A stretch of DNA of 64,000 nt from Patescibacteria group bacterium (lineage in GTDB: Bacteria; Patescibacteriota; Patescibacteriia; 2-02-FULL-49-11): contig JBAZQN010000004.1 in the NCBI GenBank assembly GCA_041645165.1, positions 18,789-82,788 of the forward strand, read 5' to 3'. Made by a program: the position numbers and the translations under genes. How positions within the stretch are numbered: the stretch's first letter is position 1; the number at the start of each line of letters is the position of its first letter. Positions 9,778-62,970 of the stretch are shown here, in pieces. A model generated the notes under the pieces. That model was not told where the DNA came from. It did not search any database and saw only the letters and a list, made by a program, of their open reading frames with translations.

Positions 9778-9886
9778 TAAATCAAAATGCAAATCTCAAA
9801 ATCCAAAATGAAAGTGTAAAATTTATAAATTTTGATTTATCATTTTGATTTTTGATTTTTGGATTTTACATTTATACGGTAAGGTG
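9778..9886. repeat. AT-rich inverted-repeat element (family caaaatgcaaa...cattttgatttttgatttttggattttacatt) between carA and carB
   Basis: Imperfect ~40-bp palindrome. The right arm 9841-9872 is identical to 62931-62962, and the left arm matches 62868-62895 with 2 mismatches. Confidence 0.7.
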
Positions 9887-12794: not shown

Positions 12795-12925
12795 AAATCA
12801 GGTCATGAATTTTCAATTCTCAATTTACAATTTTCAATCAATGACCTCATGTCTCTATTCTCATACATTGAACCATTGATTCATTGAAAATTATTTGAAA
12901 ATTGATACCTGAAAATTTAGGTACT
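12795..12925. repeat. AT-rich hairpin-rich intergenic element (aattttcaa / ttgaaaatt word family)
   Basis: ggtcatgaattttcaattctcaatttacaattttcaatcaatgacc hairpin plus cattgaa...ttgaaaatt repeats. The same words recur at 29190-29369. Confidence 0.5.
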
Positions 12926-17648: not shown

Positions 17649-17760
17649 CTTTCTAGTGCCGTTACAATATAGTTTTCGGTGATGCGTTTCCATAATTCAT
17701 CCTATTTTATTATATATTTTATGAATGGTATATCTGAAATTCAAATTGTAACGGTACTAG

Positions 17761-17786
17761 ATTCCGGATCAAGTCCGGAATGACAC
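17761..17786 (+). promoter_or_regulatory. ATTCCGGATCAAGTCCGGAATGACAC palindromic leader element immediately upstream of pyrC
   Basis: Perfect hairpin attccgga-tcaag-tccggaat followed by gacacatacctATG. A near-identical GGAATGACAC.TAC..T-ATG tail precedes pyrD. Confidence 0.5.
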
Positions 17787-17792
17787 ATACCT

Positions 17793-27963: not shown

Positions 27964-29229
27964 TTATCTGCGATCTAAAATGGTGAGCAAATGCCCCAGC
28001 CGGTCGCGTTTGGTTTTAAGATATTTTTTGTTATATCTCCCGGGTTTCACTTCCAGCGGCACGCGCTCTACAATCTTCAATCCGTACCGGGCTATGCCGG
28101 TAATTTTCTCGGGATTATTAGTAAGCAAACGAATTTTTTTTATACCCAGATCGGCAATAATCTGTGCGCCGACATGATAATCCCGCATATCAACGGGCAG
28201 CCTTAATTTGGTATGCGCCGAAACAGTATCTTCTCCCTGATCTTGCAGCGCATACGCGCGAATCTTGTTGGTAAGCCCGATGCCGCGCCCTTCCTGATTC
28301 AGATAAATGATCGCGCCCTCACCCGCATCATTTATTTTTTGCATCGCACGCGTTAACTGCGGGCGGCAGTCGCACCGCAGGGAATGGAACGTATCGCCGG
28401 TCAGGCATTGGGAATGAACGCGCAGGAGCGTCGGTTTTCCCGCTACAGGCTTTCCCTTCACCAGCGCGACATGTTCAATACCGCTGATGAGCGAACGATA
28501 CACATACATCTTGAACGTGCCGAGCTCTGTGGGGAGCGAAGCGCTCGCAACCCGGCGCACCAATGGTTCGCGTGCGCGACGATACGCAATTAATTCAGCG
28601 ATGGTAAGATAAGGCAAATGATGATGGCGTGCAATATGTTTCAACTGCGCGCGCCGCGCTGATCTTCCACTTTTCTCTAAAATCTCACAGACCACTGCGA
28701 CGGGTTTCAATCCCGCAAGCTGCATCAGGTCAACGGCCGCTTCCGTGTGCCCTGCCCGATAGAGCGTGCCGCCGGGATAACTTCTTAATGGGAAAACATG
28801 CCCGGGACGGGCAAGGTCATAGGGGCGCGTGCGAGGATTTGCCAACGCCCGTATCGTCGTCGCGCGATCATAAGCAGATATGCCTGTGGTGATTCCTCGC
28901 TTTGCGTCCACTGATACGGTAAATTCGCAATGCGTCACCTCATTATTCTCTTCCTCAGGCACCATCGGAGGCAAGTGCAGCTCTTCCGCGCGTTCCCGTG
29001 TCATAGGTACGCACACAATTCCTCGGCCTACTTTAAGAAAAAAATTGATCGTTTTGGGTGTCGCAAATTCTGCAGCCATGACGAAATCACCCTCATTCTC
29101 CCGCTTCTCATCATCAGCCACAATAATTATTTTTTCACGCTTCAGCGCGTGCAATGCTGATTCAATTTTCTTATAGTTTTCCATAGATCGTGTACGAAAT
29201 CCAAAAACTCTAGAATTTTCAACACTCAA
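27964..29229 (-). CDS. ribBA: bifunctional 3,4-dihydroxy-2-butanone-4-phosphate synthase / GTP cyclohydrolase II
   Basis: RibB ENEGDFV plus the RibA zinc site CLTGDTFHSLRCDC. 421 aa. Confidence 0.9.
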   Translation of the reverse strand: MSVENSRVFGFRTRSMENYKKIESALHALKREKIIIVADDEKRENEGDFVMAAEFATPKTINFFLKVGRGIVCVPMTRERAEELHLPPMVPEEENNEVTHCEFTVSVDAKRGITTGISAYDRATTIRALANPRTRPYDLARPGHVFPLRSYPGGTLYRAGHTEAAVDLMQLAGLKPVAVVCEILEKSGRSARRAQLKHIARHHHLPYLTIAELIAYRRAREPLVRRVASASLPTELGTFKMYVYRSLISGIEHVALVKGKPVAGKPTLLRVHSQCLTGDTFHSLRCDCRPQLTRAMQKINDAGEGAIIYLNQEGRGIGLTNKIRAYALQDQGEDTVSAHTKLRLPVDMRDYHVGAQIIADLGIKKIRLLTNNPEKITGIARYGLKIVERVPLEVKPGRYNKKYLKTKRDRLGHLLTILDRR

Positions 29230-29369
29230 TTTTCAATTTTTCCCCCGACTTGTCGGGGGATCCCGTTGCGGCGGGACAATCAATATCTCAATGTCACAAT
29301 TTTCAAACGTTTGATAATTGTTTCATTGAAATTAAATGAAAATTGAAGCTTGAAAATTATCAAAACAGT
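29190..29369. repeat. AT-rich hairpin-rich intergenic element between ribBA and ribH (contains cccccgacttgtcggggg and cccgttgcggcgggacaa hairpins)
   Basis: It shares words with the 9778, 12795, 37141 and 62866 elements (cgaaatccaaaaactc; aattttcaa; gcgggacaa). Confidence 0.55.
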
Positions 29370-37140: not shown

Positions 37141-37262
37141 TCGAAATACGAAACTCTAAATCCTAAACAAATTCGAAACTCAAATATACAAAATCCAAAA
37201 CAATTTTGAACATTCGAATTTTGGATTTGGTGCTTGTTTAAAAATTAGGATTTCTGATTTAG
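37141..37262. repeat. AT-rich inverted/direct repeat element (aaaatccaaaa...ttttggattt; taggattt x2)
   Basis: Related by shared words to the elements at 9778 and 62866. Confidence 0.5.
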
Positions 37263-38156
37263 GATTTTCACGCTGTGTCCTCCAAACTCCTGCCGCAGCG
37301 CCGCGACCACTTTGTGCGCGAAACCGTCCTTGCACTGCCGCGAGCGCGCGCGCTCCTGAAGCGCAGCCTTAATGGCCGGCACACGCACGCCACGTCGCTT
37401 TGCTTCTTCAACCGTCCAATTCCCCGTCGTCCCTCCCTCAACATACGGCGCAATGCGTCTGAATCCTGGATTTTTGAGCGCATCTCTCGCCCATGCGATT
37501 AACCGCGAATCAATAATGCTCTTCTTCGTCCACACGTCAGCGACCTCGGCAAGTTTTAATTTAAAAAGTGATCCGTGCAATACCGCCAAGCCTTCACCAA
37601 TCGCTTCCATCATCCCCACCTCAATGCCATTGTGCACGGTCTTTACCAAATGTCCGGCGCCTGAGGCTCCGCAATAAAGATAGCCCCCTCGAGGACGGCT
37701 CATAATCTTTAATAAGGGTTCAAGCATCTTGAAAGCTTTTTTCTCTCCTCCCGCCATAAAACACCATCCGTTGCGCGCGCCGCTTGTACCCCCGCTCGTG
37801 CCAATGTCCAGAAAATATATCCCTTTGCGCTTTAATGCCTTTGCCCGCCGCTGAGAATCAAGATAATTAGAATTCCCCCCGTCAATCACAATATCACCCT
37901 TTCGTAACTGACCAACTAATAAACTGATTAACTGAGTAACTGGCCTACCCTGCGGCACCATGAGCCAAATGATCTTCCTCCCTTTAAGCCGTGAGGCTGC
38001 ATCCCGCGCTGACGACGCAATCACCGCACCTGCCCGCTTCAGGGCAGGATAGGCTTGAGAAGAGCGGTTATACGCCACCACGCTCACTCCATTCTTCAGG
38101 AGACGGAGCGCCATCGCCCCGCCCATTTTTCCAAGTCCTATAAATCCAATGGTCAT
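37245..38156 (-). CDS. 6-phosphogluconate dehydrogenase (decarboxylating)-like, short NAD(P)-binding form
   Basis: MTIGFIGLGKMGGAMALRL Rossmann N-terminus. 6PGDH C-domain-like GTSGGTSGARNGW...HNGIE. 303 aa. Confidence 0.7.
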   Translation of the reverse strand: MTIGFIGLGKMGGAMALRLLKNGVSVVAYNRSSQAYPALKRAGAVIASSARDAASRLKGRKIIWLMVPQGRPVTQLISLLVGQLRKGDIVIDGGNSNYLDSQRRAKALKRKGIYFLDIGTSGGTSGARNGWCFMAGGEKKAFKMLEPLLKIMSRPRGGYLYCGASGAGHLVKTVHNGIEVGMMEAIGEGLAVLHGSLFKLKLAEVADVWTKKSIIDSRLIAWARDALKNPGFRRIAPYVEGGTTGNWTVEEAKRRGVRVPAIKAALQERARSRQCKDGFAHKVVAALRQEFGGHSVKILNQKS

Positions 38157-39301: not shown

Positions 39302-39445
39302 AGGAATAAGAATTTATTATATGCGGTGCGAAGGTTTCAATAGATATACGCAGATATTCTTCAACTGTTTCAGTATATCCTTGTGTTTCCTATTGTACTA
39401 TACTATCATCAATTTACACCAATCACACCCTCTAACCCATTAATT

Positions 39446-40174
39446 ATGAAACTTTTCATTGATTCAGCCAATCTCGAAGAAATCAAAACCGCGCTATCAT
39501 GGGGCATGGTGGACGGCTGTACCACCAACCCTACGCTTGCCGCCAAGAACGGCGCTAGCCCCGTTAGAAGTAATCCCGCTCAGCGGGATGCAGTTCCGAC
39601 GCTGGAACGGACTTCTAACGGGGTAAACGATTTCCTCCCCATCGCGAAGCAAATCCTCTCGCTCGTCCCCGGACCTGTCAGCCTTGAAGTGCTCTCCCAA
39701 GACTATGCAGGCATGACGCGGGAAGGAGTGGCGCTCGCAAAACTTGGGAAAAATGTAGTCGTGAAGCTCCCCACCACTATTGAAGGCTTGAAAGCATGCC
39801 GTGCGCTCGTCAATAAAAAAATACGCGTCAATATGACGCTGGTATTCTCAGCTCTGCAAGCCTTGCTCGTCGCCAAATCCGGCGCGACCTATGTTTCTCC
39901 ATTTGTCGGACGGCTGGATGACGCGGGGCACGACGGCAACGAGGTGGTGCAAGAAATTATTGAAATCTACGATAATTATGGATTTAAGACCCAGGTCCTG
40001 TATGCCAGCGTCCGCTCACCCTTGCACGTGAAACAAGCGGCGCTCATGGGATGCGACATTGCCACGTGTCCCTTCTCCGTTTTGGAAAAACTGGTCCAGC
40101 ACCCCTTAACCGACACCGGGCTTAGCAAATTCCTCTCGGACTGGAAAAAGTCAGGGTTGAAACCTCTTGTCTAA
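39446..40174 (+). CDS. transaldolase / fructose-6-phosphate aldolase family protein (Fsa/TalC type). Start trimmed to the Met matching family N-termini
   Basis: MKLFIDSANLEEIK...GCTTNP...KLPTT...SPFVGR motifs. It contains a 65-nt in-frame nested-palindrome insertion at 39559-39623. Confidence 0.85.
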   Translation: MKLFIDSANLEEIKTALSWGMVDGCTTNPTLAAKNGASPVRSNPAQRDAVPTLERTSNGVNDFLPIAKQILSLVPGPVSLEVLSQDYAGMTREGVALAKLGKNVVVKLPTTIEGLKACRALVNKKIRVNMTLVFSALQALLVAKSGATYVSPFVGRLDDAGHDGNEVVQEIIEIYDNYGFKTQVLYASVRSPLHVKQAALMGCDIATCPFSVLEKLVQHPLTDTGLSKFLSDWKKSGLKPLV

Positions 40175-40916: not shown

Positions 40917-41003
40917 ATTCCAGACTTGATCTGGAATCCAGAAAAATATACAAAATCGACGTTTCTTTTGGCTTTCTGGATTCCCGCCTTCGCGGGAATG
41001 ACA
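40917..41003. repeat. two ATTCC/GGAAT-family hairpin elements (attccagacttgatctggaat; tttctggattcccgc-cttc-gcgggaatgaca)
   Basis: The second copy has the same terminal sequences as the element upstream of pyrD (19106-19160). Confidence 0.7.
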
Positions 41004-62857: not shown

Positions 62858-62865
62858 AGGATATT

Positions 62866-62970
62866 AATTCAAAATGCAAAACTCAAAATGCAAAATTGTG
62901 GAGTCCCGCTTAAGCGGGACAACACTCCTTCATTTTGATTTTTGATTTTTGGATTTTACATTCGGTACGC
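62866..62970. repeat. AT-rich inverted-repeat element, second copy of the 9778-9886 family, enclosing a ggagtcccgcttaagcgggac hairpin
   Basis: The 32-mer cattttgatttttgatttttggattttacatt is identical to 9841-9872. Confidence 0.7.

Follow-up and report, generated by a model that had tools for sequence, protein, structure and literature searches.

What is a foldable palindrome of 65 nucleotides (nt) doing inside the reading frame of a transaldolase gene? The question arises from a 64,000-nt stretch of DNA from a Patescibacteria group bacterium (GenBank assembly GCA_041645165.1, contig JBAZQN010000004.1), which we refer to as the window and by whose positions all unlabelled coordinates are given, and in which an fsa/talC-type transaldolase gene (39446-40174, forward strand) harbors such a segment at 39559-39623. 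[quoted passage not shown] The segment was inserted into the gene and belongs to a family whose members duplicate their target site and differ in presence between relatives, and the gene that received it has continued to evolve under purifying selection.

The host gene encodes a transaldolase/fructose-6-phosphate aldolase of 242 amino acids (aa) including the insert, as against 219 aa in its homologs, a difference of 23 residues. NCBIfam model TIGR00875 matches the protein in two stretches around the insert with 259.8 bits (curated cutoff 245.95), PDB entry 1vpx aligns in two blocks that flank it (E 7.6e-75), and transaldolase/aldolase families were the only ones returned by an NCBIfam scan. 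The insert separates TTNPTLAAKNG from VNDFLP, in agreement with a first-pass annotation of the window, made by a model from the letters alone, that had placed a discrete structured element in frame between the conserved TNP..A motif and the downstream block of Fsa/TalC enzymes. That annotation took the extra segment to be the 65-nt palindrome itself, encoding about 22 residues; comparison with homologs instead delimits an extra segment of 69 nt, or 23 codons, encoding ASPVRSNPAQRDAVPTLERTSNG (39554-39622, plus strand; columns 109-177 of alignment A2, and protein alignment A1). The placement of this gap is ambiguous by a few bases, with AACGG present on both sides. On its own the 65-nt palindrome would be out of frame, and it is in frame because four further nucleotides, a target-site duplication, came along with it.

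Evidence for insertion comes from the closest relatives of the gene. Among the best 120 homologs of the window protein, the stretch is carried only by that protein and by one other, P0002; it is missing from the 18 of the other 118 that we aligned, and the remaining homologs are of uninterrupted length, mostly 218-221 aa, with the aligned longer ones differing by N- or C-terminal extensions only. The closest ortholog in this set, P0003 (94% aa and 89.7% DNA identity), whose gene shares an upstream BadF-type ATPase, 6PGD and Zn-ADH with the window, is shorter by exactly 69 nt, and in three separate assemblies (L002-L004) its empty site reads AAAAACGGCG-TAAC-TGATTTC, with no footprint. Related genomes do, then, lack the segment, and no distant ortholog bearing the same stretch, which the first-pass annotation had named as the mark of native sequence, was present among the 120 homologs: P0002 (locus L001, 84% aa identity) belongs to the same small clade as the window gene, and its gene, too, is interrupted at this point by 69 nt, with identical arms of 13 base pairs (bp). 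Moreover, the window protein is identical to a protein from a metagenome-assembled genome (MAG) labelled 'Patescibacteria group bacterium' and the filled allele occurs in independent ENA, Logan and NCBI assemblies, so that it is no assembly artefact.

The window gene and its L001 counterpart are 87, 94.5 and 57% identical at codon positions 1, 2 and 3, respectively, and both are therefore under purifying selection rather than being pseudogenes. An AlphaFold2 model of the window protein shows a confident TIM barrel, with residues 36-60, between helices 29-36 and 59-73, at a predicted local distance difference test score below 50. On this model the 23 added residues would hang at the surface as an unstructured loop, with the barrel and the catalytic residues intact.

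The element itself reads CCCCGTTAGAAGT-A-ATCCCGC-TCA-GCGGGAT-GCA-GTTCCG-ACGC-TGGAAC-GG-ACTTCTAACGGGG. Its left terminal inverted repeat, CCCCGTTAGAAGT (39559-39571), is identical in L001, conforms to the family consensus YCCCGTTAGAAGT and forms the 5' strand of an outer stem, P1, whose 3' strand is the right terminal inverted repeat, ACTTCTAACGGGG (39611-39623), complementary to the left arm at 13 of 13 positions. Enclosed between the arms are two hairpins: a junction A, hairpin P2 (ATCCCGC-TCA-GCGGGAT, 39573-39589) and a GCA linker occupy 39572-39592, and hairpin P3 (GTTCCG-ACGC-TGGAAC, 39593-39608) with a trailing GG occupies 39593-39610. P2 is present family-wide with variable sequence; the outer C-G pair typical of P3 is disrupted in the window by the A at 39592, and the full 8-bp stem, CCGTTCCG/CGGAACGG, is found in L001. 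The 13-bp stem around two hairpins noticed in the first-pass annotation thus holds up, and it is borne out by folding: as RNA the segment forms a three-way junction with a minimum free energy of -41.5 kcal/mol (z -5.54; none of 200 dinucleotide shuffles was equally stable), and as DNA it folds at -24.3 kcal/mol (z -7.55). The first-pass description of a cloverleaf-like structure is a loose one: the junction is a tight three-way one and not tRNA-like, and the covariance models of Rfam 15 gave no match at E<=10 for 39400-39800. On this ground we rejected the identification of the segment as a known structured RNA, be it a ribozyme, an intron or a tRNA-like element.

The ends of the element recur far beyond this gene. 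A scan of one-genome-per-species contigs with the exact pattern CCGTTAGAAGT-N25-50-ACTTCTAACGG retrieved at least 120 loci, and the family counts in what follows refer to the matches listed from it, which include 113 copies with full ends. These matches span many lineages of Patescibacteria as well as Planctomycetota (Pirellulales, Phycisphaerae), Omnitrophota, Elusimicrobia, Nitrospirae, Ratteibacteria and others, along with a few MAGs labelled Proteobacteria and one contig labelled Nanoarchaeota. Among 2.9 million viral contigs there was a single match, and phage were accordingly rejected as a vector. The family ends read YCCCGTTAGAAGT...ACTTCTAACGGGR with a sequence-specific core, YCCCGTTAGA, and conservation extends past the search pattern, with C at position -1 in 119 of 120 copies, G at +1 in 117 of 120, and at the next base out a Y on the left and an R on the right. 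The terminal pair covaries (C..G in 73 copies, T..A in 41, T..G in one and C..A in none; Fisher 1.6e-30). Copies measure about 50-76 nt and contain no transposase gene. There are several per genome, with up to three within 2.7 kb (L010), and relatives with the variant end tails AGAAAT, AGAGAT, AGAGGT, AGAAGC and AGAGCC always change both arms together.

Longer sequences of 104-276 nt with the YCCCGTTAGA core and compensated tails are also present, at L039:6347-6490, L049:2823-2945, L057:3318-3440, L022:1243-1350, L040:1165-1272, L098:1217-1320 and L091:5733-6008, and they indicate a superfamily that is probably much broader than the exact pattern retrieved. A full-text literature search for the end sequences gave chance primer matches only, and a search on MITEs or in-frame palindromes in the candidate phyla radiation (CPR) or Planctomycetes gave general papers on MITEs and on Rickettsia palindromic elements (RPEs); with no matching Rfam family or paper found, the family is apparently undescribed.

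Copies of the family also carry the mark of transposition in their flanks. The four bases on either side form a direct repeat, with 76-78% left-right agreement per position vs 28-46% outside, and models of an 8-bp or 6-bp duplication were rejected on the same figures, the repeat being confined to the central four positions. Identical tetramers flank 72 of 119 copies, almost all of them TNNA, and the target context is the near-palindrome R-TNNA-Y. Within the 72 identical-flank copies the self-complementary tetramers TTAA, TATA, TCGA and TGCA account for none of 56 TNNA duplications, TACA and TGTA are likewise missing, and the central dinucleotide is strongly non-uniform. In the window the right copy of the duplication is TAAA (39624-39627), which corresponds to TAAC in the empty allele, and the left copy is a degenerate CTAG (39555-39558); the insert length of 65 plus 4, or 69 nt, is compatible with target duplication despite this difference. 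At L029:93-260, an AGAAGT-type element (117-181) is nested within a bigger relative of the AGAAAG type, with TTTA on the flanks of each. Taken together, the family has the attributes by which MITEs are recognized: short length with no transposase gene, terminal repeats, target duplication at the level of the family, and dispersed, polymorphic copies.

Insertion into coding sequence is not peculiar to the transaldolase gene. Thirty-five of the 113 full-end copies lie inside long open reading frames (ORFs), and in 32 of these the length of the element plus four is divisible by three (p ~1e-12), as it is in 66 of all 113 (p 6e-8). Two reading frames pass through the ends without a stop, and the remaining one is closed by a TAG on the left and a TAA on the right; 27 of the in-ORF copies are read as xPVRS...TSNGx and eight as TPLEV...LLTG, and the stop-containing frame is unused. 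Sense and antisense orientations within ORFs are balanced at 16:16, and the behavior of the element is therefore a DNA-level, strand-symmetric one. Candidates for frame-breaking copies in genes were rejected, since they proved to be intergenic (before a start or after a stop codon) or to lie in antisense or low-complexity, spurious ORFs. The hosts confirmed with NCBIfam are SecA, UvrC, bL25 (whose domain is split by the insert) and leucyl aminopeptidase (PepA), and DnaE-, Mfd- and SMC-like hosts were recognized by eye only. Such a pattern would be expected if the insertions are translated and purifying selection has acted on them, and is unlike what splicing or translational bypass would predict.

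One further host recurs in three Planctomycetota: a prepilin, with the element at the orthologous G-F-T cleavage motif in each genome (L026:3651-3715, L044:5710-5774 and L023:4878-4938). The gene is that of a pseudopilin and adjoins gspF/gspE homologs. GFT is duplicated by the element, and the insert should therefore depart with the leader peptide if processing occurs as predicted. Between L026 and L044 the element is about 94% identical, while columns of the alignment of all three loci are on average 84% identical.

Although the ends are nearly invariant, the interiors of the copies are wholly different in sequence; yet 59 of 113 fold into two hairpins, with a mean z for minimum free energy of -1.9 and 43% of copies below -2. 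Once oriented, the copies follow a common scheme, end-A-[A(G/T)...(C/A)T]-G-[CC...GG]-end, in which each stem position is occupied by many pair types. Alignment with MAFFT followed by RNAalifold on 32 oriented copies recovered P1 alone because P2 and P3 vary in length, and we used anchored-stem and shuffle statistics instead. Rfam returned only tRNAs at gathering score for the 15 loci with the best-folded copies.

A number of observations sit uneasily with a simple mobile element. The window and L001 copies, a pair found via the protein and not via the ends, are identical at 26 of 26 end positions, whereas the genes that carry them are 79.7% identical (P ~0.001-0.005); third codon positions are identical at 20 of 23 sites in the insert vs 126 of 220 in the gene (p 0.006); and changes between the two copies fall on four of seven hairpin-loop nucleotides vs three of 58 other nucleotides of the element (p 0.0016). 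The gene tree, in which the filled window gene groups with the empty P0003 to the exclusion of the filled P0002, requires two events. The left duplication of the window copy (CTAG; TTCA in L001) differs from the right one (TAAA), and a terminal-repeat search of the 64-kb window found no further family copy. When the 815 ORFs of 150 aa or more in the 120 listed loci were clustered all against all, no recurrent transposase emerged, and in about 0.9 Mb of loci there were no two family ends 0.2-4 kb apart whose arms and flanks matched. Strict TTAA, the hallmark of piggyBac, flanks none of the 72 identical-flank copies. Finally, translation of the insert is inferred from the frame statistics and not from protein data.

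Some of these difficulties can be narrowed to alternatives. The conservation of the ends points either to selection on the fold or ends after insertion, or to copies that are younger than the species split through reinsertion or replacement at a hot spot; a plain, dead MITE does not predict the end and stem conservation that we observe. The gene tree would be satisfied either by one precise loss or by two insertions at one site. In the empty allele at L002, the AACGG just upstream of the insertion point equals the last five bases of the end core (39549-39553 vs 39617-39621), and this likeness of target to element end may make the site a hot spot locally. Resemblance of the target to the element's own end was rejected as a general rule, given that the flank logo shows no family-wide preference.

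The same observations bear on three other explanations, of which the one with the best prospects, though a small chance in our estimation, is that the element is a selected, functional structure in single-stranded DNA (ssDNA) or RNA, serving for instance as a site of recombination or processing, or in regulation at the mRNA level, with any mobility dependent on its fold. Folded strands are known substrates of this kind, as integron attC sites and the ssDNA of the CTX phage are recognized in that form. The covariation of the terminal pair (73 C-G, 41 T-A and one exception), the tails that vary on both arms at once, the continued pairing of P2 and P3 between unrelated sequences, the identity of all 26 end positions at 80% gene identity with substitutions placed in loops, and the prepilin insertion that is 94% identical in the element against a mean column identity of 84% are all as such a structure would have it, and on physical reasoning the shortness of a 65-bp duplex would keep its ends from being looped together, which makes a folded form attractive. 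The apparent conservation is biased, however, by the ascertainment of the 120 listed loci through exact ends; identical ends would equally be expected had recent insertions struck a hot spot independently; and many in-ORF copies persist without the hairpins (for example L055, L119 and L090). The 16:16 orientation in ORFs speaks against an mRNA-specific role, no Rfam family matches, the GTT.../...AAC box order is the opposite of that in attC, and target duplications together with a nested insertion are classic signs of cut-and-paste movement.

We regard it as much less probable still that expression of the gene removes or passes over the insert and leaves the mature enzyme short of the 23 residues, by intron-like excision at the stem base or by ribosomal bypass between the repeated AAC-GG codons in the manner of T4 gene 60 or the mitochondrial byps. 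A strong and conserved stem-loop does begin directly after AAC GGC, and a second AAC GGG lies at the element's 3' end, but the putative take-off codon is not followed by a stop codon and the supposed gap is an open, in-frame stretch of 23 codons, for which reason identity as a programmed bypass element (gene 60/byp) was rejected. If the segment were removed, there would also be no need for 32 of 35 in-ORF copies to be multiples of three or for the stop frame to be avoided; moreover, frame-breaking copies inside real genes were not found among those listed, orientation within ORFs is random, and Rfam offers no ribozyme or intron match. As for a native, lineage-specific loop or an assembly artefact whose palindromy is due to chance, its sharing by two related genes at the same position is what a native loop would show, but the closest ortholog provides a clean empty allele, the fold is improbable by chance (z -5.5 as RNA and -7.6 as DNA), the same 13-bp ends stand at no fewer than 120 unrelated loci and genes across phyla, and three independent assemblies hold the filled allele. 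The empty allele and the family scan have effectively refuted it already.

The preferred reading, a MITE-type mobile element, finds its nearest functional parallel in the RPEs (Ogata et al. 2000, 2002), mobile palindromic repeats that are often in frame in housekeeping genes, as summed up in PMC10969869. Like the family described here, RPEs occur both intergenically and in frame in unrelated housekeeping genes, their added peptide is predicted to be compatible with the host fold, and their presence varies between relatives. They differ in measuring about 100-150 bp, in being confined to Rickettsia and its relatives and in forming conserved peptide and DNA families, whereas the present elements are 50-76 nt long, occupy many phyla and, unlike RPEs, combine an end conserved over 10-13 bp with a clear TNNA duplication of 4 bp and an interior that forms a three-way junction. 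The element is therefore functionally RPE-like and is no member of the RPEs by size, sequence or host. NCBIfam holds domain models for RPEs, and its scan of the host protein listed none of them.

Bacterial MITEs offer a broader comparison, and include Correia/NEMIS, ERIC, BOX, RUP and the Coxiella QMITEs (PMC10969869, PMC5896051). Shared with these are terminal inverted repeats, target duplication, the lack of a transposase gene, many dispersed copies, folds predicted to be stable and occasional in-frame fusions. The present family is among the smallest, its ends are perfect and covary, its interior is free in sequence with hairpins kept, and the same ends are found across phyla. A cognate autonomous insertion sequence (IS) with the same ends, as would be expected for a MITE, was not found for this family in the roughly 0.9 Mb around the loci. 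MAGs frequently lack IS copies.

A possible relationship to piggyBac and the IS1380 family is suggested by the ends. Those of piggyBac read CCCTAGAAAGATAG after a TTAA target, and its excision is seamless (PMC7351741), ISEcp1 of the IS1380 family has CCTAGATTCTACGT with 5-bp T...A duplications (PMC6061673), and IS1380 transposases have been used as the prokaryotic outgroup of piggyBac (PMC10140906). All three kinds of end start with CC(C) followed by TAGA (CCCTAGAAAGATAG, CCTAGATTCTACGT and here YCCCGTTAGAAGT after TNNA), with duplications of 4-5 bp whose outer bases are T...A. IS1380 elements generally have ends that start with CC and duplications of 4-5 bp. The likeness is short and could be due to chance, the center of the duplication is variable (TNNA) in this family, and no piggyBac or IS1380 transposase was found beside family ends in the fetched loci.

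With integron attC sites and REPINs the family shares a free sequence with conserved folding and short boxes that are conserved at the stem base. An attC site reads 5'-RYYYAAC...GTTRRRY-3' and sits in a cassette array beside an integrase, while REPINs are without target duplications and depend on a RAYT with a GTAG motif. In the present family the box order is inverted (GTTAGAA...TTCTAAC) and copies lie in housekeeping genes rather than in arrays, and neither a REPIN/RAYT nor an attC context is present at the element. Identity as an integron attC site was thus rejected, both for the inverted box order and for want of a cassette array.

From these comparisons a course of events can be proposed. 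The element would have inserted at G-TAAA-C, in the loop that follows the transaldolase gene's TTNP motif, duplicating a 4-bp TNNA target in its palindromic R-TNNA-Y context, and would have been tolerated for three reasons: element and duplication together come to 69 nt, which is divisible by three; the ends are read as PVRS...TSNG, in one of their two frames that lack stops; and the 23 residues probably protrude as a disordered surface loop with the TIM barrel and the catalytic residues undisturbed. Movement would be by cut and paste, in trans, through a transposase that makes 4-nt staggered cuts, and the folded stem and three-way junction may be needed for it. An enzyme of the piggyBac/IS1380 superfamily may be the best lead for this activity, and is put forward only as a lead; because piggyBac-like excision is seamless, it would explain the footprint-free empty allele. 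Three reverse-transcriptase-like ORFs located 1-5 kb from elements (L068:5576-6814, L101:911-1933 and L022:6387-7079) were considered as partners and judged coincidental; one of them is fused to a response-regulator receiver domain. Since a duplex of 65 bp would hardly bring its own ends together, on physical grounds, the covarying arms and hairpins may reflect a folded intermediate.

More speculatively, the family may represent a cross-phylum class of approximately 65-nt mobile elements whose mobility depends on a fold, comprising a three-way junction with a sequence-specific 10-bp stem base, whose movement relies on a piggyBac/IS1380-like seamless-excision enzyme or on a novel one, and which broadly supplies peptide insertions to essential proteins (SecA, UvrC, bL25, prepilins and transaldolase) of Patescibacteria, Planctomycetota and neighboring phyla. 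We think this extended proposal rather doubtful as a whole, though fold-dependent mobility would explain why arms always covary and why hairpins are kept while sequence drifts.

Several other repeats share the window with the element. The motif CCCGC-N3-5-GCGGG, which includes the core of P2, occurs six times where 0.34 would be expected (20782, 39575, 40983, 49076, 49820 and 62905). The first-pass annotation had matched this hairpin to intergenic elements at 29262 and 62905; the stem is indeed the same at 62905, but that at 29262 differs (CCCG/CGGG), and both sites are without the family terminal repeats, so that the homology proposed for them does not follow. Kinship of the CCCGC hairpins with the element remains unproven, because the sites lack family ends and the P2 stems of other family copies are unrelated. 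A longer motif, GATTCC(C)G-loop-CGG(G)AATGACA, is shared by 40980-41003, around a CCCGC hairpin, and by 17761-17787, with a CCGGA/TCCGG stem, and the GC hairpins as a group suggest a second small family of repeated hairpins in this genome. AT-rich, imperfect long palindromes built of AAAATGCAAAACTCAAAAT-type units lie at 62860-62960, 9780-9870, 29214-29358, 12815-12917 and 37144-37267, some of them surrounding a central GC hairpin; these would be a separate repeat family, possibly of bidirectional terminators. At 17652-17761 there is also a 110-nt imperfect inverted repeat, TCTAGTGCCGTTACAAT...ATTGTAACGGTACTAGA, with 39-nt arms that are 72% complementary, and this may be another MITE with CCGTTA in its ends.

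The presence of selfish DNA in frame within proteins has been regarded as peculiar to Rickettsia, and here it is found in at least five bacterial phyla and on one Nanoarchaeota-labelled contig, the carriers being mostly uncultivated lineages from groundwater and sediment and the family a single one with nearly invariant ends. For annotation, this means that many of the lineage-specific insertions in CPR proteins may be such elements, with PVRS...TSNG or PLEV...LLTG as their signature. For transposon biology, an element of 65 bp with perfectly covarying arms and conserved hairpins appears ill-suited to end synapsis as a duplex and points to a mechanism that depends on folding or on seamless excision. 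The conserved ends offer a simple probe for horizontal exchange between phyla, and for protein evolution the family would readily supply essential enzymes with surface loops.

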